Of a DNA stretch of 64,000 nucleotides, positions 1,290 through 42,761 are shown one piece after another (positions within the stretch are counted from its first letter, which is position 1; every line of letters begins with the position of its first letter). Source of the stretch: a virus; the IMG/VR virus record IMGVR_UViG_3300021256_000005. The stretch is one strand, 5' to 3'. Both the position numbers and the translations under genes were made by a program. Below the pieces are notes generated by a model. The model saw only the letters and a list, made by a program, of their open reading frames with translations. It ran no database searches and was not told the DNA's origin.

Positions 1290-3062
1290 CTATCTATATC
1301 GAGTTACCCGTTTCGGCATCCTCATATGAATCAACATTTGTGCTTCTTGTTCTTGCGTCTGCTTACGTATTTTCTTTTTTAATCTAATTTGTTGTGCGAC
1401 ATATAGGTTGTATTGCAAAGAAGAGTAGCGGTCTTTTCGCATACCATTCTTCTCTGTAATTCTAATCTTTTCTCCAACAACCTCATACTCCAAATTTATA
1501 AGTTCGTTAATAAGAGCAGATGTCTGCACATATGGATAAAGACATTTCGCCTTTTGAGCGGGATTCAATTTAGAATATCCCTTTTGATTATTAAAATATT
1601 CCTTCGATTGTAACTCTGTAATTGGTAATGTTAGCTTTTTATTTTGTATTTGCGCCCTCAGAGCAGTAGCAGTATCACTATTAAACGTAGCATTTGCCTT
1701 AATAGACCAAAATGCTTTATTAGCATTTGGCTCTTTACAACGTTCAGCCATAGATTCATCGTTAATACATTTTAATGCCTGATATTCAACGCCTAACTCT
1801 GGATCAAAACGATTAACAGCAATATAATCAGCCACGCCTAATCCAACACCATTCGTATCCATCACCAAATCCGTACAATTGAACCGATAGAATGTACGCA
1901 TAATAATCAAACCTAATTCATCTGTAGTCAGTCCTTCATATGTATCAATCGAAACAATATGATTCATATAATCATAATCTGACACTGGAAGATTACGGTT
2001 AATAATCAGCGCAGATGCATCGTTATCGTGTTTTTTCGAGTTCATCAACGCAATATCGACAGATAAAATACGCCGTTCGTTAAATACTAATTTTGGTAAC
2101 TTAAAGTGCATAGTAGAATAATCATAAGCTTCTAGCGGATAGATAATAGAATCTCGTTCAGTCCGTAACGGTTCAATATCAGAAAACTTAAAGAATGAAC
2201 CATCCGTATCGCTGTACCATAATGAACCCATTTCAATATCAAATGACATCTGATCGAAATCATCTTCGGACATTTCATCTTCAATCTGCTCACGCATCAG
2301 TAATCCTTCTTTAATAGAAAGCTGATATGGCAATGCACAGACAAAATATCTCTTTGTATGATCCAACATATTCTTCACAAAAGAAACAAATCTTTTATAA
2401 GACCAATGGCTTTTATACCATGCACTAGTCGCATACATTTCCATATTACGTTCTTGTAAATGAACGTATTCTGGTTTATCTAAATATAACGGATGACGAG
2501 GATCTGTTAAGAATTTCTTCAATACATTATCTATGATCTTTTTCGCAACCATACGGTATTCATCGACAATCACGATATTGGCACGATTATGTCTGGCATT
2601 ATCATCAGAAGTAACAACTTTAATAGTTGAACCATTTCTCCATTTACAAATTGGTTTATTTACACCAGTGTGTAATTCTTCAATTTCATTACGAATATTG
2701 GCAGAACCCCACGTGTAGTTTTTACAAAATTCTTCATCAATCTTTGTTAAGATTTCCAATGCTTGACCTTTTGTACCAGAAGCAATAACAATCTTCGTGC
2801 CTGGATATAAAATGCATCTACAAATACAGAATAGTGCAAGTAGCCACGATTTACCCTGACCACGTGCCGCCACGTATATCACATGAGTCGAATGCATCAT
2901 TTCATATAAATTTATTTTCTGAAATGTCTTTAACCCAGTGATATTGCAATAATCAACACAAAAACGTTGTGGATTCTCACGGTAAAAAGTACCACGTTCT
3001 GCCACAACATACATCATTTGTTCTACTTTGTCTTGAAATACTTGTTTCGTTGTTTTCGACAA
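1290..3062 (-). CDS. terL: terminase large subunit
   Basis: 590 aa. Walker A VAARGQGKS, Walker B IVIVDEY, C-terminal nuclease-like acidic motifs (SVDIALM, MDTNGVG). Followed by the portal-like ORF. Confidence 0.85.
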   Translation of the reverse strand: MSKTTKQVFQDKVEQMMYVVAERGTFYRENPQRFCVDYCNITGLKTFQKINLYEMMHSTHVIYVAARGQGKSWLLALFCICRCILYPGTKIVIASGTKGQALEILTKIDEEFCKNYTWGSANIRNEIEELHTGVNKPICKWRNGSTIKVVTSDDNARHNRANIVIVDEYRMVAKKIIDNVLKKFLTDPRHPLYLDKPEYVHLQERNMEMYATSAWYKSHWSYKRFVSFVKNMLDHTKRYFVCALPYQLSIKEGLLMREQIEDEMSEDDFDQMSFDIEMGSLWYSDTDGSFFKFSDIEPLRTERDSIIYPLEAYDYSTMHFKLPKLVFNERRILSVDIALMNSKKHDNDASALIINRNLPVSDYDYMNHIVSIDTYEGLTTDELGLIIMRTFYRFNCTDLVMDTNGVGLGVADYIAVNRFDPELGVEYQALKCINDESMAERCKEPNANKAFWSIKANATFNSDTATALRAQIQNKKLTLPITELQSKEYFNNQKGYSKLNPAQKAKCLYPYVQTSALINELINLEYEVVGEKIRITEKNGMRKDRYSSLQYNLYVAQQIRLKKKIRKQTQEQEAQMLIHMRMPKRVTRYR

Positions 3063-3074
3063 TTTATCACCGCC

Positions 3075-4112
3075 TTATTCCTCAAGGTCATGACCAAAGA
3101 TATTGTCAAAAGCAATTTCTGTATCTGATTCACCTTCATATTCTGGTTTTTTCACGGTATACTTTTCTATAAACCGTCTGTACAAGTGAGAGAGTGGATT
3201 TTTAATTTTCAAATTCTCACACATGTGACCACGATAGAACACATCAATATACTGTCCAATACGATCTACATCCTTTAGTTCTGGGTCAATATCTGGACAT
3301 GGACGTTCGGTTTCCCATTTTTGAATCAGAGTACCAAAGGTTTGCGCTTCTGAAAAAGCATCCAACACGTTTTGTTTTGGCGTTAAATTTCCAGAGTTCA
3401 TTAACTCCTGTAAAGTTTTATATAAGTCTTTAGTCGGCAAATCATCTTGATTAGCCTTGCGGATTTTTAACTGTGTTTCAGCAATACTCTGTAACACAAT
3501 TTCCATAGACTTAGTATTACACTCATAGCGGGTACTCCAATCTTTATACTGCTCATATAAAAACTTATAATCTTCTGTAGAGTATCCACGCCCGAAACGT
3601 GCTATGGTGTCTTTTAACTGCTCCTTCGTAAGTCCATACTCACTTAAATTCTGCGTTGTATCACTCGATTGCTCAAAACTCATAGTACGATAATTTGCAT
3701 TTCTTTGTAATATACCTAAATACTGCTCATTAACATACATAACTTTTGTTGGGTCTGAATTGTTTTTAACCATCTCTTGCGCTGATTCATAAATAGAATC
3801 AATAAACGGCAAATCTATTAGTTTTAATCCTTTTTTTAACGTATCAATATTTTCATACTTGATACCAGTTCCAGTATCGGTTGGGATTATAACTTGTTTG
3901 ACGCATTGTTTACAAATAGGCAAAACATTTGATCCCCATTTCTCGCTTTTATAAAAATCAGATTTAGGTTTAAATTCAGCACAGCAATGACAATAAGCTC
4001 CATTTTTCATAGACTCATAAGCTTTACTCAAAGTCTTGTACATCTGTTTTACTTCATTTGGGGTTTTGCCTTTTAGAACGTCAACATCATCAAATGCAGT
4101 AATTTTTTTCAT
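3075..4112 (-). CDS. hypothetical Cys-rich protein (possible small terminase by position only)
   Basis: 345 aa with RBS (aaaaggagaaatagg) upstream of the ATG. CxxC pairs (CHCC...CKQC). Lies immediately upstream of terL. Confidence 0.55.
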   Translation of the reverse strand: MKKITAFDDVDVLKGKTPNEVKQMYKTLSKAYESMKNGAYCHCCAEFKPKSDFYKSEKWGSNVLPICKQCVKQVIIPTDTGTGIKYENIDTLKKGLKLIDLPFIDSIYESAQEMVKNNSDPTKVMYVNEQYLGILQRNANYRTMSFEQSSDTTQNLSEYGLTKEQLKDTIARFGRGYSTEDYKFLYEQYKDWSTRYECNTKSMEIVLQSIAETQLKIRKANQDDLPTKDLYKTLQELMNSGNLTPKQNVLDAFSEAQTFGTLIQKWETERPCPDIDPELKDVDRIGQYIDVFYRGHMCENLKIKNPLSHLYRRFIEKYTVKKPEYEGESDTEIAFDNIFGHDLEE

Positions 4113-4135
4113 CCTATTTCTCCTTTTGACATATT

Positions 4136-4684
4136 AAAACAACTATTGAGTGATATTTCTATCTGCCAATATATATCTTCATACATATTCAGACACGTAG
4201 CATATAACAGCCGAGCAGTCGGGAGCGACCCAACTGCTTTGTTATACCTATAAAACTACGGATAGACTGCTTACTATCACCTTTTACACACCTTTCGGCA
4301 CAAATATCGTTTTGTTTTAGAATGTACTTGTATAAAAAGCCTTGTGCTACTCAGACCAAACTCCAACGTTATACACGCATTTCTGCGCTTCACGGCTCTA
4401 CAGATTATTGATATTCCGCAGGTTTGATACAGTCATCGGCTAAACCCTAACTACGGTTATTGTACACAGTACCGTCTATTGCTCTGTCCGTCTCGTTTGT
4501 TCCTTTGTATGCGACACATATTGACACATATTCTTGATGTTGAGATTCTGTCTCTCCTTGCACAATATCACTATTATGCAACAGCAATAAACACAAGGTA
4601 TACCTCATGCGCTTACTGATCTTCCGAACATTCTCAGCACCGTTGGTTTCACGGCTCTGCACTGAGTTACTCAATAGCTGTTTT
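4136..4684 (-). ncRNA. candidate large structured RNA (alternatively a cos/pac region)
   Basis: 549-nt non-coding stretch whose ends form a 16-bp helix (4136-4151 with 4669-4684). Its single non-Watson-Crick position is G-U only in minus sense. Internal GAAA-tetraloop hairpin at 4375-4388 and an 11-nt repeat ttcacggctct at 4389 and 4648. Confidence 0.35.
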
Positions 4685-4691
4685 AATGTTT

Positions 4692-4725
4692 CAAAAAAAT
4701 AGTGGGTATTTTTCGTACCCACTAT
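4692..4725 (-). terminator. rho-independent terminator
   Basis: Minus sense: 10-bp stem atagtgggta/tacccactat with a 7-nt loop, followed by a T7 run. The stem overlaps the TAG stop of the 4722-5879 gene. Confidence 0.7.
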
Positions 4726-5879
4726 TTAATACCACCTAATTCAAAAGTGTATTCAATTGCTTTTCCTTGTTCATTAAAAATAAATAAATTTGATTTTGGT
4801 GTAGAAGATAACACCTGTGACGTAGCATATGGATCAATGCCAATCACGCTACCTACAGATAACACATTGCACCGAGTGCCAACTTCTTTTGACTGGCTAT
4901 GATGAATGTGTCCAGAAATTAAGTAGTTAATATCTGTATGATACAGCCTAGTAAATTCATGAATTGCGGTAGAAAGATTTTTTACTTCACCATGAATCCC
5001 TAAAATATTAAATCCACAAATGGTTTCAAAATTCATTCCAGTTGGATTTTCAGCAATTGTTATGTGATTATTATTCCGTAATCTTATTTTTAAAAACTCA
5101 CGAATCACGTAACTCATGTTTTCATCTGGGAAAGAATTTTTCGGCTGTCCAAGTAAACGTAATTGATTATGGTTAGAATCACTCACCATCTGAAATTTTA
5201 CATCTACATACTGACTAATATCGTTTAGCCATTCTGCAATATATTCAGCATAACGAATGGCTGATTCGATCACACCATACTGCAATTGTTTCAGCTGAGA
5301 ACTAAGCCTAAGCATACCTTGTACACTATCGCCTAATTCCCAAATAGAAATAGAAGATAAGTTTTCACGTTTAATAGCATCTAATAAACACTGTTTCATA
5401 TATTCCATACGGCTTACGAATACATGACTATTGTACTTATTAACAACATTACCTGCTAAATCTTTAATACAAAACTCAATTCCGAAATGACAATCAGAAA
5501 AGACAAATAGTCCCGCTCTGTTATTATCGGTTTCTTTAACAGGCAGTCCGACTGACCGATAATCCATATCTGGAAGTGCCTTAATAGCGTCAACTATCTT
5601 TTCTGTAATTAATTCATCACGTGCTTTCTCACGCAGTAAACGGTTGTATTCAATTTTTTCAGTTTGAATCTTTTTTCTTTCTTTAAGCAATTCATAATAT
5701 TCCGCACTAGCGGTTAAACTAGCATATTGCTTACGATATTTACTTTCCGTATATTTCACATGCAGTATATCATTTAATACATTCGCCACATCTTCCCACG
5801 TACCAATAGTATCTTTTAACGAACAAATTCTTTTAATTACATCTTCATCAGATTCATTTGGTAAACGCTCAAACTGCAT
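4722..5879 (-). CDS. calcineurin-like metallophosphoesterase
   Basis: Motifs in order: SDCHFG (DxH), GDSVQG (GD), SNHNQ (GNHD/E-like), GIHGE, GHIHH. Confidence 0.75.
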   Translation of the reverse strand: MQFERLPNESDEDVIKRICSLKDTIGTWEDVANVLNDILHVKYTESKYRKQYASLTASAEYYELLKERKKIQTEKIEYNRLLREKARDELITEKIVDAIKALPDMDYRSVGLPVKETDNNRAGLFVFSDCHFGIEFCIKDLAGNVVNKYNSHVFVSRMEYMKQCLLDAIKRENLSSISIWELGDSVQGMLRLSSQLKQLQYGVIESAIRYAEYIAEWLNDISQYVDVKFQMVSDSNHNQLRLLGQPKNSFPDENMSYVIREFLKIRLRNNNHITIAENPTGMNFETICGFNILGIHGEVKNLSTAIHEFTRLYHTDINYLISGHIHHSQSKEVGTRCNVLSVGSVIGIDPYATSQVLSSTPKSNLFIFNEQGKAIEYTFELGGIK

Positions 5880-6061: not shown

Positions 6062-6455
6062 TTTTTACATCCATTTCTGCAACAAAACGCTGTTTTGGTG
6101 AATACTCATTAAACTTGCACGGTATTAACACACCACCTGAAGTAACCTTCCTAAGTTCTTCAAATGATTCATAAGTACAGAATACTATATCATTTTCGAG
6201 AAACAAATATTCTCCATTCTTTGCTCTTGCGGGTTCAATCCATAATTCATCGTTGCAAATTGTCACATAATATCCACCTCCATAATCATAATAGTCCACT
6301 TTTAATAATTTAATATCAAGTTTTCTATTAAAATTACGGATTAAATAAATAACACAATCAACAATATCTTTATCTGGACACACGAAACTTACATTATAAT
6401 CACTACTCAGTTCAATAATGTTGTCGTATAAATTCTCATGATCTTTAAAAATCAT
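6054..6455 (-). CDS. hypothetical protein
   Basis: 133 aa. Overlaps the upstream gene stop by 4 nt (translational coupling). Confidence 0.6.
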   Translation of the reverse strand: MIFKDHENLYDNIIELSSDYNVSFVCPDKDIVDCVIYLIRNFNRKLDIKLLKVDYYDYGGGYYVTICNDELWIEPARAKNGEYLFLENDIVFCTYESFEELRKVTSGGVLIPCKFNEYSPKQRFVAEMDVKND

Positions 6456-7567
6456 AACCTTTTCTCCGTTAAATCACGAAGAAATCCTGTGATTTGAATT
6501 AACTTATCAATCACATAATCAATTTCTTCTTTTGTATTAGTATAATAAAAACTAAATCTTACACAGGTATAAATTTCTGGCTCTTTCATACCTATAGCTT
6601 CTAACACGTAAGATTTCTCAAGTACATTAGAATTACAAGCAGAACCAGTCGATGCGCAAATTCCAATATTATCTAGCATAGAAACGATTGTATTTCCATC
6701 ACAACCATCAAATTGTACGTTTACAATGTGCGGAGACACGTTCTCATTTAACACTACATGGGCGTAAGGTATTCTGCTGACACAATCAACAAAATAATCA
6801 TGCAAGTCACGCATATAATGTCTAGGTTGACATACAATATCTTTTAATGCTACAGATAATCCAACGATTGCCGCTGTATTCTCTGTACCACCAACTAACC
6901 CTTTTTCTTGATGACCATGAATAATCGTGCGAAGCGGAATAGAAGAGTACAATACAGCCGCACCACGAATACCGCCTATTTTATGCGCACCAAACGTGAA
7001 TATATCAACATGTAAGTGTCGAATGTTTACAATTTCATATCCAATTGCTTGCGTAGCATCACACATAAGTACATGATTATACCGATGCGCTATATCCGCA
7101 AGTTTACAAATTGGCTGAATACACCCAGTTTCATTATTAACATATTGCACAATCACCAAAGAATTAGCAGGAGCGTGCTGACAAAATTCCTGATATGAAG
7201 ACATATTTATCAATCCATTACTATCGACTGGTAAAATGTAAGAATTATAAGACTGTACACATTCGATAATATCAACGTGTTCTACTGCCGAACATAAAAT
7301 ATGCACAGAAGGATGAGATTTCATATAGCCTTGAATTGCTATATTATTTGCAGTAGTAACTGAGTTAGTAAAATAGACGTTTTCTACTTCACCGCGTAGA
7401 ATATCAGCAATATCAGCACGTGCCTTTTCAATCGCTTCACGTGATTGTTTTCCTAACGAATGAGTTGAATTTGGGTTTCCGTATATTGTTGTCAGATAAG
7501 GCGTAATTGCGTCTAACACGTGTTTTGAAGGCCGTGTTGTAGCCGCCTGATCGAAATTCACTCTCAT
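6452..7567 (-). CDS. cysteine desulfurase (class V aminotransferase, NifS/IscS-like)
   Basis: N-terminus FDQAATTRP...YGNPNSTHSLG, PLP-lysine context FGAHKIGG, active-site loop STGSACNS. Confidence 0.85.
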   Translation of the reverse strand: MRVNFDQAATTRPSKHVLDAITPYLTTIYGNPNSTHSLGKQSREAIEKARADIADILRGEVENVYFTNSVTTANNIAIQGYMKSHPSVHILCSAVEHVDIIECVQSYNSYILPVDSNGLINMSSYQEFCQHAPANSLVIVQYVNNETGCIQPICKLADIAHRYNHVLMCDATQAIGYEIVNIRHLHVDIFTFGAHKIGGIRGAAVLYSSIPLRTIIHGHQEKGLVGGTENTAAIVGLSVALKDIVCQPRHYMRDLHDYFVDCVSRIPYAHVVLNENVSPHIVNVQFDGCDGNTIVSMLDNIGICASTGSACNSNVLEKSYVLEAIGMKEPEIYTCVRFSFYYTNTKEEIDYVIDKLIQITGFLRDLTEKRL

Positions 7568-7817: not shown

Positions 7818-8105
7818 TTATGCTTCAATACGAATATCTCTAAGCGGCTTTGTCATTTTTACTTTCACACCAATGTGAGCAGAATCTGACCACGGTCGCC
7901 CATTACACATACCAGTGCGGTCTGGATATTCCTTCATTTTATACTGCACGCCAAATAAAGACATTTCTTCTTTGGATTTTAAGTTATTGTAAATTGTAGT
8001 AAACATTGCCTGATAAATGTCGTTCAGTTCATGTAACGAATATTTTGTACCACACTCATTCACAACTAACTCCTGTACGGCTCTAATGAAATTTTCCTTT
8101 GTCAT
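7818..8105 (-). CDS. HU/IHF-like DNA-binding protein
   Basis: 95 aa. The pattern matches bacterial histone-like proteins (N-terminal helices, then ...EYPDRTGMCNGRPW...VKVKMTKPLRD arm). Confidence 0.55.
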   Translation of the reverse strand: MTKENFIRAVQELVVNECGTKYSLHELNDIYQAMFTTIYNNLKSKEEMSLFGVQYKMKEYPDRTGMCNGRPWSDSAHIGVKVKMTKPLRDIRIEA

Positions 8106-8235: not shown

Positions 8236-9045
8236 TCAGCTCTCAGAGGAACTTAAAAGAACTTTTTTACACGTTTGCGAACAAAATTGTTTGTTTTTGT
8301 ATGCTTCAAATAAGTGATGGCACACAGGACACTCTTTCAAATTCTTCACTAGTTTATAATGCGCATAATATTGTTTTCCCAAGTTATTAAAGTTCTCAAC
8401 CCAAAATGCAACTGGTTTAGTTGTGTCAAGGTTCAAAATATTTACTTTGAACATATCAAGTTTGTCCACATGCAAGGTTTGTTTCGTCCCACGGTCAACA
8501 GTGCGAATATCATAATTTAACATTCCTTTACCAATCAAATCATTTAAACACTTGAAATACTTGTCAGTGTTAAAGTTGGTTACATCCGCCAACTGTTTCA
8601 GATCAACCGCTAAAATATGAAACCAATACCAATATTTCTCACTGGACAAATAATCGTCCACATGATACTTTTCCATGTGGCAGGTATCAATCCACTTTTT
8701 ATGTACCAATAAAGCGAACAAGACTTTTTCATACTCCCAATTTTTCACTGACCGTATATTTTCCAGTTCGCATTCATAAACAGGCACTTTCACGTTATAG
8801 TCTTTAATGCGAGTAGCAGAAGCAATGAAGCGGTTATAAATCTCAGTTTTATCCTTTACGTCTAAATAACATAATACACCATCACTTAATTCATCAAATT
8901 TATATCTGATTTCTCCCTTCGTGTAATTATTGTTCAACATATAAACAGCAACAGCGGTTAACTCTTGTCTGCTAAACTGTTTTGTTTTTAATTTACCAAT
9001 CTTAAAAATATATTCGCCGTATGTATAATAATTATGAATAATCAA
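8236..9045 (-). CDS. hypothetical protein with C-terminal zinc ribbon
   Basis: 269 aa. C-terminus CPVCHH...CSQTCKK. Overlaps the RNAP gene stop by 4 nt. Confidence 0.6.
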   Translation of the reverse strand: MIIHNYYTYGEYIFKIGKLKTKQFSRQELTAVAVYMLNNNYTKGEIRYKFDELSDGVLCYLDVKDKTEIYNRFIASATRIKDYNVKVPVYECELENIRSVKNWEYEKVLFALLVHKKWIDTCHMEKYHVDDYLSSEKYWYWFHILAVDLKQLADVTNFNTDKYFKCLNDLIGKGMLNYDIRTVDRGTKQTLHVDKLDMFKVNILNLDTTKPVAFWVENFNNLGKQYYAHYKLVKNLKECPVCHHLFEAYKNKQFCSQTCKKVLLSSSES

Positions 9046-11822
9046 ATTTGCACCTCTGTATATTTCTTCCCTAAATACTCTGCACCGCTTTTATCTTCAA
9101 TTACCGCAATATGCCTACCTTCCGGTAGTATGCTCAAAATATCTTCGCCCAACATATCCCAGATGAACGCTTCATCAAAACCGGATGTTTTATTGCCAAA
9201 ATCAATCAGCACGTTAAATAAGTCGTATGTATTAGTTACAAGTTCGTCCAATTTGCCACGATATTCTAAATCGAACATACGTTTGGCATTACTGATAATA
9301 CGGTGAAAATCGTCGTCATTGATATTGTCAAGCAAGTGTCTCACTAATGAGAGATATTTATTATTACAATAGTCACGGTAAATCTCGTAAACAGTGTCGT
9401 AATTATATCTCACTGGTGGCATCCCGTATGACATCAAAACATTTTCTCCCTTGATTTTACGGAACGAAATATTATCCTCAACCCGCTCAAATTTGTGGCA
9501 AAGCTTATTCATAATGCATGGCGAATCCAGAACAGGAGAGAAGTATTCAACACGATTCACGAATTTACGTTCTTCTTTTGTTTTGTTCGGCTTATATTTC
9601 AAGTCGTTGTATTTGATTTGAAATTTTGCCTTACAGATTTTCTGAAAACTTTTCATATGATTTGTATACGATTTATGCAAATTATCATACAGATAAATCA
9701 TAAAGTACGGCTTCTTTGTAATCACCAACGAATTACGTTTGTATTTTGCGTCTATCACCTCTGGACTATCATTTTCTAAATCAATTTTTACACGCTTAAT
9801 CCATTCTTCTGGAAATTCAGGAGATACACCAAGTTTAATTTTATCAATCTCTGCACCAATGATCTCACGCAGTAATTTCAGACGTGTTAAAATGATTCTA
9901 TGTTCTTCTGGTTTGGTATCAGCAGGAAACAAAGGCAACATAGCATTGAGAGATGTGCTATTGTTCGTGATTTGACCTACTAAAGTGTCGAATCCGTCCA
10001 TATCGCAAGCAATCATGTTAGCGTATGTCGGCTTTCGTTTCGGTGCTTTGTCTTTGTCATATGTGATTACATTGTTTTTATAATACGCCCCCTCAATTAG
10101 TTGCTGATTATCAGTTGTAAACGCAATATCACCGTCGAAATCCGAGTCACTATGGCGTATTGTGCTAGTATCATAAATACTATACACGATTCCAGAATAC
10201 AAATACTGAAACCATTGTTCGCATTCATCGTCATCGTACACAGATAAGATATTATGTTCATGCCGATCCACCATAGGACTTCGCATCGCATCTATAGTAT
10301 TTACACCACGGTTCAGCCAAAACTGTGTATATACACAATTAGCAGGAATAAACCCCTGTATTGGCATATTAGAAGCTTGTTGCAGTAGCGGAATAGGATC
10401 AGCCAACTGGAACTGATAATTTCCCTTCGCCCAAACACGACCAAGTTTTGCTTGCTTGAATGATTCCTTAATACTGTGATAAATCTTACGCTGTATGTAT
10501 TCGTCTTTAAGCAAGTCTTGATTTTTCACAATTGCCTTTGTAAATAAACTACCGCAACTATTCATCATATCCTGCCAAGTTTCATCGGCGTGTTTACACC
10601 CAATAGCATACAGATTAGCGTATAACGATTCACCGCTACAGATTTTTTGAAACCATTCAATTGTCGGCTGTATCAACTCGTCTATCGCTTTATCGGACAA
10701 TCCGCAATTCTGAATGTACTGGTAATTCAGTTGAGAATATTCTGCGTCATATTTTTTGTTGTATCTAGCAACACCCCAGTACAGTCCGTATTTGTCATGA
10801 TAGTCAACATACTCACGCACCGATGAATAGTAATCATGCATCTTAAACTGCGACTCTGTGAGTAAAACGTCTATTTCGTCCACATTAAACAATTCGCCGT
10901 AAATACTGCGGATTTCAGTTACCCCACACCGTTCCTTTAAGTATTTACGGAAATCAAACGTCAGCAGATTGCCCTTTACGAATGCCGTCCTAATTACGAA
11001 CTGGCAAGCAGTATATCCAATCCCCATATCCTCAGACCAAAGTTCAGCCATTTCTGGCGTGATTAAACCTTCGCCATCACAGCTGTTCAAAACAACGTCC
11101 ATAGTAGTAGGTTCGACTGTCTTTGTTCCATCCTCATGCTTCACGATATAGTCTATCTTCTGCTGTGGAATAGTAGTTTCAACGTCAGCAATTACGCAAA
11201 TTCGAGGTTTTCTCACCCACAGAACGGAAGAAAACGACAGGGCAAAATACGCTGATAGTTTCGACAGTACAATTTCATCAATCGTACCGTAGAGTCCGCA
11301 GTACAAATGTTCATTGAGTATATCGTAATATTCATCGTTGATAAACGTCACGGTATTACGTCTCATTTGTCCTGCACCACAACAGAACCGAACGTAATGT
11401 TTACCATTGCAGTAGAAGCCGTGTTCCGCTATATGCTTATAGTGTGCCTTATTTACAACTTTGACATTGATAAAATCCGTCAGGTAAGTCATATCGAGTA
11501 GTTTGTCCTTCAACTGTTTAATAGACTTTTTGGTACGCTGATTTGTGTGCTTTGTACGTACTTTATCAATTTGTACCCGCACTTCTTGAATGTCGTTGTA
11601 TAATTCAAGCGGTGTGCGTTTCTCCCCCTGTAAGTCTCTCAGCTTGCGTAATACTAAATTGTCACCAATGGAAACAATTTCTTTATTTTTAACCGCCTTC
11701 TGATAACTGTACTGTCCCAGATCGAATCGTGGCTCAGTTGGTAGTTTCCCACCAACTAAACCTGTCCGATAAATCTTCGTTGTTTTAATTTTTAGTATGT
11801 CGTATAAAATTTGTTTTGGCAT
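9042..11822 (-). CDS. single-subunit two-barrel RNA polymerase, YonO / cellular RdRP-like
   Basis: 926 aa. DFDGD (residues 561-565, nt 10128-10142) matches the Mg-binding loop of multisubunit RNAP beta-prime (NADFDGD) and the DxDGD of YonO/QDE-1. It is preceded by AMRSPMVDRHEH, which resembles the RxP strand of the same barrel. Confidence 0.6.
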   Translation of the reverse strand: MPKQILYDILKIKTTKIYRTGLVGGKLPTEPRFDLGQYSYQKAVKNKEIVSIGDNLVLRKLRDLQGEKRTPLELYNDIQEVRVQIDKVRTKHTNQRTKKSIKQLKDKLLDMTYLTDFINVKVVNKAHYKHIAEHGFYCNGKHYVRFCCGAGQMRRNTVTFINDEYYDILNEHLYCGLYGTIDEIVLSKLSAYFALSFSSVLWVRKPRICVIADVETTIPQQKIDYIVKHEDGTKTVEPTTMDVVLNSCDGEGLITPEMAELWSEDMGIGYTACQFVIRTAFVKGNLLTFDFRKYLKERCGVTEIRSIYGELFNVDEIDVLLTESQFKMHDYYSSVREYVDYHDKYGLYWGVARYNKKYDAEYSQLNYQYIQNCGLSDKAIDELIQPTIEWFQKICSGESLYANLYAIGCKHADETWQDMMNSCGSLFTKAIVKNQDLLKDEYIQRKIYHSIKESFKQAKLGRVWAKGNYQFQLADPIPLLQQASNMPIQGFIPANCVYTQFWLNRGVNTIDAMRSPMVDRHEHNILSVYDDDECEQWFQYLYSGIVYSIYDTSTIRHSDSDFDGDIAFTTDNQQLIEGAYYKNNVITYDKDKAPKRKPTYANMIACDMDGFDTLVGQITNNSTSLNAMLPLFPADTKPEEHRIILTRLKLLREIIGAEIDKIKLGVSPEFPEEWIKRVKIDLENDSPEVIDAKYKRNSLVITKKPYFMIYLYDNLHKSYTNHMKSFQKICKAKFQIKYNDLKYKPNKTKEERKFVNRVEYFSPVLDSPCIMNKLCHKFERVEDNISFRKIKGENVLMSYGMPPVRYNYDTVYEIYRDYCNNKYLSLVRHLLDNINDDDFHRIISNAKRMFDLEYRGKLDELVTNTYDLFNVLIDFGNKTSGFDEAFIWDMLGEDILSILPEGRHIAVIEDKSGAEYLGKKYTEVQI

Positions 11823-11831
11823 ATATTCCTC

Positions 11832-13571
11832 TTAAATAATCCACGCTTCACATTGAATATTGCTAATATTTAATTCGTGTTTAGCACGTGTCATTGCTAC
11901 ATACATAAGTCGTGCTTCGTTTTCTGGTGCGTCACGCCAACTTGGAAACCTATCTGGCTCGCAACCAATAATATACACACGGTCAAATTCCAATCCTTTA
12001 CTGCCATGAATCGTCATAAGAGAAACACCGCTATGATCGGATTTCTTTTTCTTATGATTCATCGTGCTAAATACAATAAAGTTATCAATCGAACTAAACC
12101 GCCACGCCATAGAAGTAAGGTTGAAAATTGAATCTCGTTTATCTTCGACTGATACTGAATCATATCGTTCATCAAGCCACTGATTCACCCTGCACAGTGC
12201 AACAATACTATCAATGATTTTTCCAACCTGCACGTTCCGTTCTTCTTTGGTCTTTAACCGAGAAATTATATTATTGAGTTTCTCTACGTTATCTCTTTCA
12301 AATGCCTTGTCAAACTTGTGGTCAAGTAATGCTTCATACATAGAATAGTTTCGCATGGTGGCTTCTGCCCGCAGATCATCTACCAAACTTGACTTAAAGT
12401 AAGTAGCAGGGTATAAGCGTGATTCTAACAGTTGTTCCAATGCTTCATCATCACTTGTGCGATTAACTAATCTTAATACCGCCATAATACCTTTAATCGG
12501 CTGACGCTCAAAAAACGAATCACTACTATATAGCGTGTAAGGAATGTTCTTATCTTTTAGCAAGGCTTCAAGCGAGTCTACCATTGCGTTGTTACGGTAC
12601 AGAACAGCCGTGTTGTTCAATTCTGCTTCTGACAGCTTCGACAAACGTTCACAAATACTCTCTGCTTCATCCAATGGAGTATCATAAGTGCTTATATTTA
12701 TTTTAGTTTTAGAGCAGTCATTAGCTTTGGCGTAATATTTTACCTTGTCACCCACAAAAGGTTTAATAAAATCATTAGACGCCGTTACTATTGTATCGTT
12801 GGAGCGATAGTTCGTATTCATGTAGATTACGTGATCCGCTTTATTACTGAACTGATAAAACAGCTCAGAATTAGCACCCCGAAACGAATAAATAGATTGT
12901 AAATAATCGCCTACAATGAAGATGTTGTTATCAGGACACATCAATTCCATTAACTTGTACTGAACTACGTTGTTATCCTGCGCTTCATCGTTCAATAAGT
13001 ATTTCCAAGTACGTCCAATATTGTCCGCCTGATATTCCTTTAAGGTAAGCAGTAACCATTCGTCAAAGTCGTACAGATGATGTTTATGACAGTAGTCCTG
13101 ATAATCGCTGTAGTAGTAGCGCATCTGCTTCTCAGAGTATTCGCAATCCTTCTCCTTAAATTCATCGGTTGGATAAATACCCCAGTTTTTCTGATAAGAA
13201 ATCCAAGCACGAATATCTTTGATGTTAATTTTTGGATTGTCTTTCGACCATCTGCGTTTCAGCTGATAATCTTTTGGCATATTGAGAAGATCCTCGTAAC
13301 CGATTTCTTCCAATAAACGCTTGCAGATTGAGTGCATTGTGCCAGTGGTGACGCCGGTAATATTTTTGTCTGCCAGTTTCTTCTTTAGATCATTAGAAGA
13401 AGCAAGAGTGAAAGACAGAGCAACAATGTCATTTGGATTGATGCCTTGTTCAATCATATAGTTAATCCGTTCTACTAATACAGTAGATTTTCCGGAACCC
13501 GCTGAAGCAACCACTTGAACAGAACCGTCAATTGTGTGAATTGCTTCAAGTTGCTGTTTGTTATATTCCAT
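11832..13571 (-). CDS. UvrD/PcrA/Rep-family SF1 DNA helicase
   Basis: Walker A ASAGSGKST, DEAQD, TIHGSKGLEFD, YVAMTRAK. Confidence 0.85.
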   Translation of the reverse strand: MEYNKQQLEAIHTIDGSVQVVASAGSGKSTVLVERINYMIEQGINPNDIVALSFTLASSNDLKKKLADKNITGVTTGTMHSICKRLLEEIGYEDLLNMPKDYQLKRRWSKDNPKINIKDIRAWISYQKNWGIYPTDEFKEKDCEYSEKQMRYYYSDYQDYCHKHHLYDFDEWLLLTLKEYQADNIGRTWKYLLNDEAQDNNVVQYKLMELMCPDNNIFIVGDYLQSIYSFRGANSELFYQFSNKADHVIYMNTNYRSNDTIVTASNDFIKPFVGDKVKYYAKANDCSKTKINISTYDTPLDEAESICERLSKLSEAELNNTAVLYRNNAMVDSLEALLKDKNIPYTLYSSDSFFERQPIKGIMAVLRLVNRTSDDEALEQLLESRLYPATYFKSSLVDDLRAEATMRNYSMYEALLDHKFDKAFERDNVEKLNNIISRLKTKEERNVQVGKIIDSIVALCRVNQWLDERYDSVSVEDKRDSIFNLTSMAWRFSSIDNFIVFSTMNHKKKKSDHSGVSLMTIHGSKGLEFDRVYIIGCEPDRFPSWRDAPENEARLMYVAMTRAKHELNISNIQCEAWII

Positions 13572-13609
13572 ACAGTCTCCTTTTATAAATTTATGTTTGG
13601 TTTAAGAAC

Positions 13610-13638
13610 AGTATAATCCGGAATGGGGTTAAAGTCAA
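13610..13638 (-). promoter_or_regulatory. sigma70-type promoter for the helicase/RNAP operon
   Basis: Minus sense TTGACT (13638-13633), 17-nt spacer, TATACT (13615-10), about 40 nt upstream of the helicase ATG. Confidence 0.6.
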
Positions 13639-13662
13639 GAGAAAATAAAAATAAATTAAGTA

Positions 13663-13691
13663 TTGACAAAATTAAAAAGTTGTGTTATTTT
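13663..13691 (+). promoter_or_regulatory. weak candidate rightward promoter into the hub
   Basis: TTGACA (13663-68), 17-nt spacer ending TGT, then TATTTT. The extended -10 TG is present but the -10 hexamer is poor. Confidence 0.25.
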
Positions 13692-13787
13692 ATTATAATA
13701 TATATATATTAATTATATATTATATATATTTATATATTAATTATATATAAATTATATATTATTAATATAATATTATTACGTTTTATT

Positions 13788-13877
13788 CGGCAGTCGTGTC
13801 AACGACTGACGATAGCGTGACGTTGCATCGCAACGGAACGCGCCCCGCCGACAGGCGGCGTTGCCGACAGGCAACTG
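13788..13877. repeat. GC-rich palindrome island 1 (four adjacent hairpins)
   Basis: Hairpins at 13791-13808, 13815-13841, 13845-13858 and 13861-13874. The last two share a GACA loop. Confidence 0.85.
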
Positions 13878-13962
13878 TATAATAGTATTATATATATTTA
13901 TATTATATATAATATATATTATATTTATATATATATATATATTATATATTTATATTACATAC

Positions 13963-14038
13963 ACTTAGACAGCTACGCCAGTAGCTGGCTAACGGTGCTG
14001 GTATTGCGTAGCAATGCCTGCGCCGAAGCGTCGCAGAC
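13963..14038. repeat. GC-rich palindrome island 2 (three hairpins)
   Basis: cagctac-gcca-gtagctg 13970-13987; attgc-gta-gcaat 14003-14015; ctgcg...cgcag 14018-14036. Confidence 0.8.
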
Positions 14039-14055
14039 ATATATATTATATATAT

Positions 14056-14099
<44 letters not shown>

Positions 14100-14389
14100 T
14101 ATACAATAAGATAATATATTTGTCAAGTATAAAATTATAATTATTTTAATAATATATTTAATTAAATATATTTAAGTATTATATTATATACTATATATTT
14201 AGTTAAATATATTTAAGTATTATTATAATATATAATTATTTATATATTATTATATATCACTGTATATTATTATATAATAATTAAGCACCATAGTTATTAT
14301 ATATTATATATTACTAATTACATACATCATCAATTACATACATTACTAATTACCAGAGTTATTATTTTATTATTGTTTATTGTTTATAT

Positions 14390-14462
14390 ACTTTTGGCTC
14401 CTTTTGCTAACGCAAAAGATCACCAAAAGTTCGTATTCCTTCGCAAGCGAAGAAATACGAGT
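14390..14462. repeat. GC-rich palindrome island 3 (nested hairpin plus 30-nt palindrome)
   Basis: acttttgg/ccaaaagt encloses ttttgc-taac-gcaaaa (14390-14430). A near-perfect palindrome spans 14431-14460. Confidence 0.8.
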
Positions 14463-15950
14463 GTAATATATATAAATAAATATATTATTATATTTATATT
14501 ATTATATATTTATTATATATTATTATATTATATATTTATTATTATTTATATTATTATATATCTATTATTCTGCTGAGTTATATTATATTAAACAGTGTGG
14601 TTGCTATATATTATTATTTATTAAATATTTTATCTATTACTTTATCTATCGTTTGTATTATTCATTCACACTATTGAATTGTTATTATATACCCATACAA
14701 CAACACACAGTCATTTTGTGCGCTGTTTTATATATGCAGTTTAATAAGTTTACCCTAAATTATTAAAACGTCTGTATAAGCCTAATAGATATGTTATTTG
14801 AGGTGTGCCTTTTTTGGCGGGTTCTATTTTGTTGCGTGCTAGTTCCTGAGCTGTTTAGTTTATTATTTAATCGCTGTTATTTGCGCCGCCAAATTATATA
14901 TACCAAACGTCCTGTATTTTTAGCGTGTTTGTATTTGTTTGGTTGCCTATTTAGTTTAGTGTTCTGTAAGATGAGACAGTAAACTATTTGGATGTTATAT
15001 TTAGTTATATATTATATTATATATTTATATATTATTGACTGTCCAATTATTTTTCTGCGCCTTGTATCTTTGTCGGCTTTGTTTTATATTATTACTACAG
15101 TATTTTATAGAACCGCTTGTCTGAAACATGCCTATATCTACACCTATTGATTGTACGCATGTTTTTATGACACCACCCTATAACTTTTACGTCTGAGAAT
15201 AAAAACGTCTATATGAGCGTTTTAGAGCATTGTATAATACATTGATGATTGTCTATGTGTTTTGTTTAGTTAAATAAATTTAATTAAATTTCTTTAAGTA
15301 TTTATTGGTGCGCCACTAGAAATATAGGCAGTATTTGACTGCTTTGTTTTGCGATGGTAAACTGTATTAAATAATTATTTGCGTGTTTTATTACCGCCTG
15401 CGAAATAGAATAATGTATATTTATTCATTGTTTATACATTTTGACTTGTTTGGTTGTTAATTTTTGCGGCTGTAATTTTTGGTTGTAGCCGTTAATGTTT
15501 GCGATGGTCTGTTTAATGTGTAAATATACCCCGCCTGTTTATTAAGTATGAGATCGCTGTTGGAGTACTTTTTTAATGTGTTTTGTATGTTATTTAGCTG
15601 AAAGATAGTTAAGCCATTAAGCAGTCAATTAGTTTAGATGATTGTTTTATGTTTGATTGAACAGAGCAATAGTGGTTGTTTCGTATTATTATATAGCACT
15701 TAAATGATTGCTATTGTTTTGCTGATGGTTTATTCTGCGTTATTAGACAGCTAATTAGTTGAGCAGATATATGCTAATTTGTCCGCGCTGTAATTAGTTT
15801 ATTTATTGGAGCAGTAAGTGATTTGCTAGTTCTATATTGCAGTTGTTTAGTCAGTGATGTTTGATGTTAAATTAGTTAGGTTCCTAACTAACTAGGTGCT
15901 AAGCCATTTTTGTGGCGACTGAGGGTGTTATTTTATATTAATTATATATA

Positions 15951-16235
15951 GTTACTAATTAGTTACTAGTATTTAGCGGTTGATAATATAGTGCAGGACA
16001 ATTGCCTAATTTATATGGTTACTTATTGGTTACTAATTATGTTGTTGTTTTATGCAGTGAGTGGATTCTATTAGGCGATTGAGAAGTTGATTCTGGCAGT
16101 TAATTATTATTGAATTAAGCCGCTGAATTACTTTATTTGATTGTTGTTTTGGAAGGTGTTATTTTGTGTTGATTCGAAATTATTAGGACGTGATGTAACT
16201 AATTGTAGTTACTAATTGGTTATTAGTTACTTATT
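15951..16235 (+). repeat. iteron-like direct repeats GTTACTAATT / GTTACTTATT
   Basis: GTTACTAATT at 15951, 16029 and 16208. GTTACTTATT at 16018 and 16226. Further variants (gttactag 15962, gtaactaatt 16195). All on the same strand. Confidence 0.7.
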
Positions 16236-17217
16236 AGGTATTAAGTATGTTGTTAGTTATTTATTAGTTACGTTGCGATTTATTTAGTTGCTTCTTAATT
16301 TATTTATGTTTTGTAATATTACTTATTCTGCGACTGATTAAGTATTGGGAAATTCATTAATCTACTGATTTTGTTATGGTTTCTAAGATATCTTCTGACG
16401 TAAAATTGGTTTTGATTAATAGTTAAATATATTTAATTATTTAGTTGAGTAGTTTTACGATTGCTGTATTGATCTGATTGTAGTTGGTAAGAAGTAATAT
16501 TATTGGCTGTTAGAACTATATGGTATTAGCAGAGTATATGATTGTTGTAGTTTAGTGGTTAATTTGTTGTGTTGTTTAATTATTAAACAGTGATTTATTT
16601 AGTAGCGAGCAACAATAAGTAATAAGTTTTTAGTTAGAGTGTTAATTAGTTGTAGTGCTGATTGAACACTGATGGTTTAGTAGTGATTTATTAGAGTGAT
16701 GATTGATTTATTTATGTTTTGGTAAATTTATTTGGTTTTTGTAAATAATTTTAGGTAGATATATTTAATTATTATTTATAATGACTGAGTTGGCAAGTTA
16801 TGAATGTTACTTGAAGTATTCAATTCATTTTAATAAGCCTGAGATTTTCTTGTGTCGATTTAACTTATTGAGAGTAGTTTTATAGGACGCAATTCTGATG
16901 GAACAGTTTAACAATAAGGCTACTTGATCGTTTAATTAATTAGTTAGTTATTAGGTTTTTAGTTTTTTAGAGATTGATTTAGTGGATAGTTATTTATTAA
17001 TGCGGGATTTGGTGAGTAGAACTTTTATTTAGTGAATGTGGCAGTTTGATAAGTAGGTGATGGTATAGGTTGTTAGTTAGTAATGTTGATTGGTGGTAGT
17101 GTTTATAGATTAGTGGTTATTTAGTGAATTAGTTAGTGATTGTTGCTGATGTTGATTGGTTGATAGTGTATTAGTTATGATGTTTGTTTGATTGATAGGT
17201 GTGATGGCTGTTTGTGG

Positions 17218-17384
17218 GTGAGTGAGTTATTTGGTAATTTTATTTGATTTTTTTGTAATTAGTTTTTGTTAGTTTCTTTAATAGTGAGTTATTTATTTGG
17301 TGAGTTTGTTGGATTTTTGGAATGTTAGTGAGTTTTTAGTGAGTTGGGAAGTGAGAAGGGTGAGATTTTGACGGGGTGTGTGAG
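17218..17384 (+). repeat. GTGAG direct-repeat array
   Basis: GTGAG at 17218, 17222, 17284, 17300, 17328, 17339, 17351, 17360 and 17380. The 17328-17360 group is spaced 9-12 nt apart. Confidence 0.75.
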
Positions 17385-17416
17385 TTTACCTCCATATAGC
17401 TATTTTAGCTTTACAC

Positions 17417-17503
17417 TTTTGTCAAAATGTATAAATAACCCCCTTTTGACGTCGGATAATAAAAATTACCCGACATGGCACTTTTTTGACATTTATGTCA
17501 AAA
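17417..17503. promoter_or_regulatory. operator-like TTTTGAC half-sites and palindrome
   Basis: ttttgtcaaaa 17417-27, ttttgac 17444-50, and the 20-nt palindrome ttttgacatttatgtcaaaa at 17484-17503. Confidence 0.5.
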
Positions 17504-17624
17504 ACTTAATAGTTAAATTTTTTTAACTAATTTTTTAATTATATATTATATATTATGCATAATATATTATATATCATATATTATATAAAATTATATTTGA
17601 CACAATATAAATTTCCAGAGCAAC

Positions 17625-17724
17625 AAAATACTTAAAAATCTTTAACCATTCCCATCCCATCAAAAATACTTAAAATAATTTAACTATTATTTTTGCTCTA
17701 AAAATACTTAAAAATTTTTAACTA
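17625..17724 (+). repeat. three 24-nt direct repeats at exact 38-bp phasing
   Basis: aaaatacttaaaa(t/a)-n-tttaac(c/t)a starts at 17625, 17663 and 17701, 100-200 bp upstream of the consensus promoter. Confidence 0.8.
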
Positions 17725-17821
17725 TCTCACCAGAACAAAAAATATATTTCATCAAATATAATTTGATACAACGTTATGCTGCACGTCACCAAACAAAAAA
17801 TAAATTTTTTCCAAAAACCTA

Positions 17822-17850
17822 TTGACACAACGCGATACTAGTGCTATACT
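17822..17850 (+). promoter_or_regulatory. near-consensus sigma70-type promoter
   Basis: TTGACA (17822-27), 17-nt spacer, TATACT (17845-50). First strong rightward promoter before the plus-strand arm. Confidence 0.75.
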
Positions 17851-17856
17851 ATAGTC

Positions 17857-18440
17857 AAGATAAAGATATAACTTATTTATCTTATCGTTCGGGCACTCTG
17901 CCCGCCCACCGCTATCACAGCGGGCGTACCTTGACAAGTTACCTGTTGGTAACTCATAAGATAGGAGAACACCGTGACGGGTGAACTCTGCCTATCGTTA
18001 GTTTGATAATTCTAACGCCTAAAAATTATCAGCCTATCTATAGGCGTAGTTTGCATACCCATGATAGGTTTACTATGAAATCGGCAACTGAAACCGTAGT
18101 TATGATAGAGTCGTTTAGACTCAAGTAGTCGGGTACAAGCCGAGTAGTAAATTGGGATTCATGGCAGACAAACTACAGCTATAGACAGGTGACTTACCCT
18201 TTGTATATGTGAGGGTGTCGGGCTTTTCGGGTGTCCCATCAATACATCCAGGACGAAAATCATATACCGAACAAAATTGTCAACCGACGTGCCAGGGGTT
18301 GAATGTTTGCGGACTCAGTGCGCTTAAATAGCAGATAAATTTACACCGCAACATTGGCCGCCTGGTATGTCGTTACCTTGTAAGTTGCTTTAATTGCATG
18401 AGTTTATCGTGCAATTAACGCAACTTATAAAGCGCAATAA
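17857..18440 (+). ncRNA. candidate ~590-nt structured leader or large ncRNA
   Basis: No ORF. GC content is higher than the surroundings. Many local helices: 17891-17903, 17909-17923, 17937-17954, 17960-17996, 18108-18122. An H-type pseudoknot arrangement lies at 18005-18046. A 17-bp terminal hairpin lies at 18381-18427. Confidence 0.4.
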
Positions 18441-18454
18441 AAAAGGAGAAAACT

Positions 18455-19030
18455 ATGTTAAAATTTAATCAGATTTCAAACGGCTTTATTGACAAGACAG
18501 CAAAGGAAAACAAGGCGGGCATTACCCGCATAATTAACTACGGCGTATCCCTCGTTGATCACGCCGAGAAACTTCTGTCTTTGCAGGAAGAAAAGAAGGA
18601 AGCAGAAAACAATCTGAATTCTGCTTCTGAAAAGTTAGACGGCACAATCTCCATTGACGAACGTGCCGCAACTCTGTTATCGTATCGGCTGAAAGTTAAC
18701 GCAGTCAGTGAGAAGATTAAAGCAGAAAACAAAAGTTTTCGCTCGAAATCAAAGGTATTCACCGATGCCTTCAAGACGTCTGAATTATATCAGGCGTACA
18801 AAGAGTTTGACGGAACTGGAAACAGTTACCTTGATGCCATGTCAACGTTTCTTGATTTAGTCGGTATTGTACCGACTAAAAAAACTGTCAAAAAACTTTG
18901 CCGTCTTGCTGGTGGCTCAGTAACTACTGGCAATAAAGAAATAATAAATTGCCAATTCACAAAACGCCTGTCTAAAAAGGCGTTTGAAACTTTAATCATT
19001 AGATTGCTGTGTGAAGAGTTCGCACAATAA
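18455..19030 (+). CDS. hypothetical protein (coiled-coil-like)
   Basis: 191 aa, strong RBS aaaaaggagaaaactATG, first gene of the plus arm. Confidence 0.7.
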   Translation: MLKFNQISNGFIDKTAKENKAGITRIINYGVSLVDHAEKLLSLQEEKKEAENNLNSASEKLDGTISIDERAATLLSYRLKVNAVSEKIKAENKSFRSKSKVFTDAFKTSELYQAYKEFDGTGNSYLDAMSTFLDLVGIVPTKKTVKKLCRLAGGSVTTGNKEIINCQFTKRLSKKAFETLIIRLLCEEFAQ

Positions 19031-42540: not shown

Positions 42541-42628
42541 AATTACAGTTGATGAAGTTCTTTGGAACTGTCAACAAAATATAGTTTCCTTTCCTTCTTA
42601 GAATTGGTGGATGTTCTTCCACCAATTT

Positions 42629-42700
42629 ACCCCCATCGCCAAATGGTTAAGGCATAGCACTTTGACTGCTACACTACTGGTTCGAGTCCAGTTGGGGGTG
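42629..42700 (+). tRNA. tRNA-Gln (anticodon UUG)
   Basis: Perfect 7-bp acceptor stem accccca/tgggggt. Anticodon stem tagca/tgcta with loop cuUUGac. T arm actgg-ttcgagt-ccagt. 72 nt, no encoded CCA. Confidence 0.85.
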
Positions 42701-42761
42701 TTTAAAACAATAAAAAATATAAAGAAAGGAGTCCATATGAATAAAATTGCAAGAATTAGAA

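Follow-up and report, generated by a model that had tools for sequence, protein, structure and literature searches.

To our knowledge, ROOL RNA is among the few natural RNAs that build a closed cage without protein. The family was described by Weinberg et al. in 2017 (PMC5737381), its members have a mean length of 581 nucleotides (nt; PMC5737381), and they belong to phages and prophages, often near islands of transfer RNA (tRNA) genes (PMC12286853, PMC5737381). In the structure solved by cryo-electron microscopy (cryo-EM) for the ROOL env-120 (PDB 9MDS), eight copies of the RNA form a closed, hollow, protein-free cage of about 28 nm with D4 symmetry, which is joined by kissing loops and A-minor contacts and has the linker inside (PMC12286853). 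Here we analyze a putative ROOL RNA gene in a 64,000-nt stretch of viral DNA (IMG/VR record IMGVR_UViG_3300021256_000005), referred to below, in its whole length, as the window. It is very likely that positions 4124 to 4696 on the minus strand are the ROOL gene of an uncultivated SPbeta-like phage, and we infer that its RNA is produced and assembles into a cage.

Two other phage RNAs invite comparison. GOLLD, a large RNA of phages and prophages that is often located in tRNA islands, shows late-lysis expression and forms an RNA-only cage of 14 copies (PMC12286853). It is the same kind of element as ROOL, but the two are unrelated in sequence and fold. The pRNA of phage phi29 is about 170 nt long and needs the portal; like ROOL, it is a phage RNA that assembles via intermolecular loop-loop pairing, but it forms a ring. 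A parallel of another sort is offered by the processing stems of ribosomal RNA (rRNA) and tRNA operons, which are cut by RNase III. In rRNA operons, as would be the case for ROOL, long complementary flanks (median of 27 base pairs, bp, in ROOL) enclose an RNA in a polycistronic transcript, whereas the ROOL stem is at the same time helix P1 of the RNA.

RNA genes also have a precedent in the part of the genome considered here. In SPbeta, the polymerase YonO transcribes the late genes in a single operon, starting upstream of yonK and a non-coding RNA (PMC5467207). We found Rfam matches to DUF3800-VIII RNA (RF03075) in SPbeta between yonN and yonK (L004:1982-2047), inside a 1.7-kilobase (kb) late-operon leader that is free of open reading frames (ORFs), and in one further locus (L023:1158-1223). 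The SPbeta copy may be the "unannotated non-coding RNA" beside the YonO start of Forrest et al. (PMC5467207). Although DUF3800-VIII RNA and ROOL both lie within a YonO-type late operon, the former, a motif of 64 nt, has an unrelated fold and is situated upstream of yonK. The presence of a non-coding RNA in the SPbeta late operon shows that RNA genes can reside in this part of SPbeta-like genomes.

When the region was scanned with all Rfam families, there was one strong match, to RF03087 (ROOL) at 4690..4133, with 300.3 bits against a gathering cut-off of 99.1 and E = 4.9e-68, on the minus strand only (cmscan). The match covers model positions 1–574 of 574 and is not truncated. It is 558 nt long (4133-4690), or 573 nt (4124-4696) when P1 is extended along a 28-nt inverted repeat, and both values are close to the ROOL length of about 580 nt. 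The initial annotation, which was made from the sequence without database searches, had described a 549-nt non-coding region here, had suggested a large structured RNA on the minus strand, and had recommended a covariance-model search. The full-length match to RF03087, together with covariation among 54 homologs, bears out the structured RNA, and the region is indeed non-coding; its size is corrected to 558 nt for the Rfam match or 573 nt with the extended P1, and the candidate belongs to a family that was already known. The match accounts for 558 of the approximately 609 non-coding bases, the remainder being a terminator and a ribosome-binding site. The former "549-nt non-coding region" is thereby explained, and its annotation should read ROOL RNA.

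Judged from its sequence, the element adds a divergent copy to a family already known and is not a new kind of RNA. Its identity to the other ROOLs fetched in this work is only 43–57%, the closest being about 57% identical. A BLASTN search in distant mode (query 4100-4730) against 50,697 GenBank phage records gave no match, since ROOLs are too divergent for BLAST, and nhmmer with the window ROOL alone recovered, among the loci with YonG homologs described below, only the phage's own copies and one other locus (L019). Across the whole 64-kb window, an Rfam scan at E ≤ 1 returned ROOL, one tRNA, a chance match on the same tRNA and nothing else; GOLLD, phi29 pRNA and self-splicing introns had no match at this threshold, and no second large RNA family, GOLLD or other, was found.

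Threading the sequence on the Rfam structure showed that 153 consensus pairs are present, comprising 110 Watson-Crick, 25 G-U and 18 non-standard pairs, so that 135 of the 153 (88%) are standard; six further model pairs are lost through deletions. The ornate nested structure of ROOL, with P1–P19 and its multistem junctions, is thus able to form in the window sequence. The minimum free energy is −173.3 kcal/mol (z = −6.2) for the minus strand vs. −127.0 kcal/mol (z = −3.2) for the plus strand. Strand-specific wobble pairs had been the original argument for a structure in minus-sense RNA, and this argument holds across the whole molecule, as its 25 G-U pairs would read A-C on the plus strand. 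Likewise, the 16-bp closing helix noted earlier (4136-4151 with 4669-4684, ROOL positions 13-549), consisting of 15 Watson-Crick pairs and one G-U pair, proves to be stem P1. A repeat finder lengthens it to 28 nt with 89% complementarity (4124-4151 with 4669-4696). On its 5′ strand (4669..4696, minus), 4669-4684 form the 16-bp arm and 4686-4696 the extension.

For a comparative analysis, we retrieved 65 loci from viral contigs by a pattern of conserved ROOL words, nearly all of which were ROOL according to nhmmer. The window ROOL and 53 other phage ROOLs were then aligned by sequence only (MAFFT), and the Rfam structure of the window copy was projected on this alignment of 54 sequences. A standard pair is formed in 72.9% of the cells, compared to 55.5% when columns are shuffled (0 of 500 shuffles reached the observed value) and 39–47% when the partner is slid by 1–3 columns. 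The covariation score behaves similarly, at 0.473 observed vs. 0.184 shuffled and at most 0.200 slid. Changes on both sides occur in 139 of the 153 pairs; for example, P1 (helix 2) is 78% paired, and all 11 of its 11 counted pairs are compensatory. Since the structure played no part in making the alignment, these figures are conservative, and they are in line with the R-scape table published for ROOL, where significant covariation is listed for P1 (nt 1-17 with 642-659 of env-120) and for most of the other stems (PMC12286853). Covariation among the 54 homologs thus strongly supports the ROOL helices, all of which covary, and the compensatory changes whose absence among relatives had been named beforehand as a reason to discard the proposed helices are present.

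Individual elements of the fold can be placed on the sequence. The hairpin GCGCA-GAAA-UGCGU at 4375..4388 on the minus strand (ROOL positions 303-316, model positions 306-319), recognized earlier together with its closing G-U pair, is the most conserved ROOL hairpin; in the alignment, this helix (helix 25) is 99.6% paired with compensatory changes. The last hairpin, GAUA-GAAA-UAUC (4152..4163, minus; helix 35), lies directly before the 3′ strand of P1 and is 97% paired. A variable, unpaired, A/U-rich linker of 50 nt (4292..4341, minus; ROOL positions 350-399) aligns to the long loop of the model, and the variable linker of the solved ROOL is disordered inside the cage (PMC12286853). Two mutually exclusive hairpins had been drawn in this part of the molecule. 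One of them, 4215..4237 on the minus strand, is ROOL P18 according to both the Rfam match and the alignment, and its conserved loop L18, GGGUCGCUCCC at 4221-4231, agrees with the Rfam consensus GGUcGCUCC; in the solved ROOL, L18 makes the symmetric cage bridge B6 (PMC12286853). The other, 4211-4222, is not retained, as it lies outside the consensus and borrows the pseudoknot strand UCGGC.

An exact 11-nt repeat at 4389 and 4648 had also been pointed out. The repeat exists, with 13 of 14 bases matching between 4389-4402 and 4648-4661, and about 0.04 exact 11-nt repeat pairs would be expected in 558 nt by our own calculation. One copy is the stem of a variable hairpin and the other overlaps the conserved GccuUGAa junction. 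As a meaningful element the repeat was rejected: it is absent from the other 53 ROOLs, and we treat it as a coincidence.

Two long-range contacts emerged when the unpaired columns of the 54-ROOL alignment were scanned for covariation. The first is a pseudoknot between GCCGA at the 3′ end of the linker (4295..4299, minus) and UCGGC in the internal loop J17/18 (4210..4214, minus). The window forms five Watson-Crick pairs here and differs from the family consensus (UCUGA/UCAGA) by two double changes with pairing kept; the core three pairs are 98% paired in the 54 sequences. The second contact involves the loop of the first hairpin, GAAACCA (4644..4650, minus), in which A44-C45-C46 (4645-4647) pair with G399-G400-U401 (4290-4292) at the 3′ flank of the linker. 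A further contact concerns the cage itself. In the solved ROOL, covarying pairs between loop L8 and J6/8 form bridge B4, an intermolecular kissing loop between neighboring cage chains (PMC12286853). The corresponding elements of the window are L8 CCGAUGA (4433..4439, minus), whose GAUG is complementary to UAUC in J6/8 (4410..4413, minus). Unlike most relatives, which have UGGU/ACCA at B4, the window has GAUG/UAUC, with three Watson-Crick pairs and one G-U pair. The words vary across the family (UGGU/ACCA, UGAGA/UCUCA, GUGACA/UGUCAC, and others), and at least four Watson-Crick pairs are formed at B4 in 30 of 36 distinct sequences. By homology to env-120, eight copies of the window ROOL would be expected to assemble into a hollow cage.

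In summary, the window element resembles the ROOL family in its full-length model match, size, P1–P19, GAAA hairpin, L18, linker, pseudoknot, kissing-loop complementarity and phage origin. It differs from other ROOLs in its setting, between the terminator of a protein gene and a ribosome-binding site in an SPbeta-like late block.

That the phage is SPbeta-like is indicated by the predicted products of its genes and their order. Immediately downstream of ROOL, on the same minus strand, are genes for a YonG-like protein (3075..4112; PF27269/PF27316) and for TerL, the large terminase (1290..3062; YonF-like, Pfam Terminase_6N, 45% identity to SPbeta YonF). Immediately upstream is the gene for a YonJ-like exonuclease (4722..5879; PHROG 284 exonuclease, E = 4e-47; PF27386/PF27387 YonJ), and farther upstream are genes for the HU-like YonN (7818-8105) and a YonO-like single-chain RNA polymerase (9042..11822; PF05183, E = 9.5e-13), all on the minus strand. 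The YonJ and YonG assignments come from precomputed Pfam matches and PHROGs. The complete order on this strand is YonO, a 269-amino-acid protein, YonN, an aminotransferase, two small ORFs, YonJ, ROOL, YonG and TerL. YonD and YonB families are likewise found among the neighbors, and the order YonO, YonN, YonJ, YonG, TerL and portal is that of SPbeta. In SPbeta, the yonJ-yonG interval is occupied by yonI and yonH instead of ROOL. We also note that the aminotransferase gene (6452-7567, minus; class V, PF00266, E = 2e-57, cysteine-desulfurase-like fold) lies between the yonN-like gene and yonJ, an interval that in SPbeta contains only non-coding sequence and yonK.

The same contig is present in three metagenome assemblies of the European Nucleotide Archive (ENA; ERZ12302812, ERZ12302851 and ERZ28612969), with an essentially identical ROOL. 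The four phage copies from different assemblies, the window included, have a single difference in a 750-nt region, a one-nt deletion at 4650 (ROOL position 41, in the loop of the first hairpin) that sets two contigs (L002 and L003) apart from the window and the third contig (L001). Outside the cluster to which the phage belongs, the nearest YonG homolog has 45% identity. The window contains a single tRNA gene, for tRNA-Gln(UUG), located at 42628-42701 on the plus strand, 38 kb from ROOL and on the opposite strand.

Searches of viral and genome contigs with TerL as the sole query brought up no related loci. Therefore, we rely for relatives on 102 loci with YonG homologs (L005-L106), which were fetched through an alignment of YonG homologs and derive from genome bins of gut and rumen Clostridia. 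In roughly two thirds of them, co-oriented tRNA genes are found within 4 kb upstream of yonG, and the longest run comprises 15 tRNA genes, all on the yonG strand (L061, L063). In one clade, formed by L019 from an Anaerofustis genome bin together with L125, L135, L142, L157, L160 and L162, a full ROOL comes 17 nt after a tRNA-Leu gene, and the pair lies between yonO and yonJ; the ROOL of L019 scores 309.6 bits. In L168, ROOL comes immediately downstream of yonJ, which is also the arrangement of the window; the closely related L163 has its ROOL some 1.8 kb upstream of yonG. Three SPbeta-like lineages or more (the window, the L019 clade and L168/L163) have thus acquired a co-oriented ROOL within this block of late genes. 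Among the 54 ROOL loci, tRNA genes are found within 1.5 kb in 42, and in every case they share the strand of ROOL, in agreement with the literature picture of ROOL beside tRNA islands; on this comparison, the window copy would be unusual only in having no tRNA beside it. As a separate observation, some relatives carry suppressor-type tRNAs, with the anticodon CUA in L027, L028, L039, L110, L146 and L154 and UUA in L104 (2145-2229), which hint at stop-codon reassignment or suppression in those relatives, as these tRNAs would read UAG and UAA.

The position of ROOL between yonJ and yonG suggests how it could be produced. Given this context, ROOL would be transcribed in the same direction as the late genes (yonO ... 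yonJ - ROOL - yonG - terL), and the late transcript carrying it would be made by the phage polymerase YonO, as in SPbeta. A hairpin of 12 bp with a 7-nt loop, followed by a U-run, is found at 4697..4727 on the minus strand by the repeat finder and in the sequence, its 5′ arm containing the yonJ stop codon TAG (4722-4724). It is likely an intrinsic terminator or attenuator of yonJ. A terminator had been assigned to this place before, as that of a metallophosphoesterase gene; the terminator is likely correct, but the gene is the YonJ-like exonuclease gene described above. The 5′ strand of the ROOL terminal helix starts inside the U-run of yonJ (4693-4696). At the other end, the 3′ strand (4124..4151, minus) stops 1 nt before the Shine-Dalgarno sequence of yonG, GGAG at 4120..4123 on the minus strand, which is 7 nt before the ATG at 4110-4112. 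Upstream of ROOL, up to yonJ, no convincing promoter was found, and downstream of it, up to yonG, no terminator. The only "terminator" called by the promoter/terminator scan falls inside a ROOL hairpin, and its T-run rule made the scan overlook the yonJ hairpin; we did not use the scan as evidence.

Since no promoter was found, and since the helix starts in the yonJ U-run and ends 1 nt before the yonG site, ROOL is most likely made by read-through within the late polycistronic transcript. It would then probably be released by cleavage in or beside the terminal helix of 28 bp, much as RNase III cuts a processing stem. Such an excision is supported by the length of this helix, which is much longer than P1 in Rfam and in the cryo-EM construct (only 16–17 bp) and resembles the processing stems of rRNA operons. 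The extra length is a family feature: in 47 distinct ROOL loci (L019, L107-L170) the terminal helix has a median of 27 bp, and it reaches at least 25 bp in 32 of the 47. The terminal helix of about 27 bp is a modest new point, and it may be a processing stem. In loci that are flanked directly by tRNA genes (L109 group), the terminal helix is only about 15 bp. In addition, the outer 5′ strand of the helix contains a word of the form YYUUGAWAA in 23 of the 47 loci, mostly CCUUGAAAA, and the window has UUUUGAAAC.

Alternatively, the ROOL fold might act mainly in cis, as a 5′ leader that controls the translation or stability of the yonG-terL-portal mRNA. In favor of a leader, no terminator lies between ROOL and yonG, the 3′ strand of P1 ends 12 nt before the ATG and directly abuts the GGAG, and at least two other ROOLs (L108, L114) are directly followed by an AAGGAG-type site. 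However, the Shine-Dalgarno sequence itself is unpaired, ROOL precedes tRNA genes or sits far from any ORF in most loci, and in the L019 clade it is upstream of yonJ, not yonG. Moreover, ROOL has been reported as a very abundant, stand-alone, cage-forming RNA (PMC12286853). We therefore regard a mainly cis-acting leader as very unlikely.

The initial annotation had further considered a pac or cos packaging site, given that the region lies just upstream of the terminase genes, about 1 kb from terL. Position is what this proposal has to offer, and the gap in question is filled by the ROOL match. Moreover, most of the homologous ROOL loci have no terminase gene in the fetched stretch. In SPbeta-like phages, which package by the headful mechanism, the point at which the genome opens has been located between yonR and yonP (bioRxiv 10.1101/2021.11.22.469490), and by synteny this corresponds to the strand-switch region of the window at 13571-18455 rather than to the yonJ-yonG interval. 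A packaging site at the ROOL locus is accordingly a highly improbable explanation, and we have set it aside.

The strand-switch region itself is 4.9 kb long, extends from a UvrD-like helicase gene (11832-13571, minus) to the first plus-strand gene, and contains no ORF of at least 90 amino acids. Its segment 13600-14800 has 15–26% GC and AT-rich tandem repeats. The segment 15200-17380 has no ORF of at least 40 amino acids in any frame, a GC skew of up to +0.70, the plus strand being nearly devoid of C, and numerous degenerate repeats of the TTAGTTA and TAATTAG types. There was no Rfam match in 13571-18455. By synteny with yonP-yonR of SPbeta, the region may hold a pac site, and it is probably the other "large RNA candidate" of the initial annotation.

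A further suggestion had been that a tyrosine recombinase inverts the DNA enclosed by the inverted repeats (28 nt in our analysis), and long inverted repeats 517 nt apart would suit such a system. Yet the repeats include one G-U position and two mismatches, and across homologs with unrelated sequences they show the covariation of an RNA helix. The orientation is identical in the window and three independent metagenome contigs, and ROOL is co-oriented with each tRNA gene found up to 1.5 kb away (in the 42 of 54 loci mentioned above) and with the late genes in SPbeta-like loci. The chance that the segment is invertible is negligible. Finally, there is next to no chance that the region encodes a small protein: the mechanical ORF listing does include a 91-amino-acid ORF (4447-4722, minus), but its GTG start is inside the yonJ terminator hairpin and has no ribosome-binding site, the deletion at 4650 frameshifts it in two otherwise identical metagenome contigs while falling in an RNA hairpin loop, and the whole stretch is explained by the full-length covariance-model match, so the earlier judgment that the region has no credible ORF stands.

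We return to a ROOL gene that would be transcribed with the late genes and whose RNA would assemble into a cage. Several points nevertheless weigh against this account. With respect to the fold, 18 of the consensus pairs are non-standard, and the B4 complementarity of the window is kept but lies at the weak end of the family. The two long-range contacts are jointly 87% paired vs. 19–33% in slid registers, a post hoc test, since one and the same alignment served both to find the pairs and to count them. Cage assembly has been demonstrated for one ROOL only, env-120 (PMC12286853). With respect to context, the window ROOL has no adjacent tRNA gene, unlike 42 of the 54 ROOL loci. With respect to expression, the yonJ hairpin and its U-run could halt most transcription before ROOL is reached, and ROOL may have its own promoter inside the 3′ end of yonJ. 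A sigma-70 scan yielded 20 promoter-like sites vs. 16.2 expected, a number that does not exceed chance. The transcript with its ends, abundance and timing is in all respects something that we infer from sequence, and the RNase III step is proposed by analogy.

As for what the cage might do, the authors of the cryo-EM study suggest that it may enclose tRNAs, ribosomes or other molecules (PMC12286853). Among the possible roles, one in translation or in the RNA economy of the infected cell fits best, because of the late position of ROOL and because relatives have tRNA genes in this region, but we give it a fairly low probability. DNA packaging is a less likely function. A functional parallel to phi29 pRNA is tempting, since the window ROOL adjoins packaging genes, but the likeness is a resemblance only, as most ROOL loci are in tRNA islands and most have no packaging gene in the fetched stretch. 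In a more elaborate scenario, ROOL would be a YonO-transcribed late module that is exchangeable with tRNA arrays upstream of yonG and excised via its stem of about 27 bp, and its cage, formed late, would capture tRNAs or ribosomes or, less likely, would aid head assembly or packaging in a pRNA-like manner. We consider this whole chain of steps rather unlikely. Were it true, a promoter, a timing and a genetic context would be defined for ROOL for the first time, in the SPbeta-like group.

SPbeta has good genetics in Bacillus. Because of this, and because its late polymerase, YonO, is known, the timing and processing of ROOL are testable in principle. The window copy provides a clean and interpretable context for this RNA, within a late block that runs from an exonuclease gene to the packaging genes and in a region that holds tRNA genes in relatives. 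The value of the finding, which is modest, lies in placing ROOL in a defined late-operon context in SPbeta-like phages and in the long terminal helix that encloses it.

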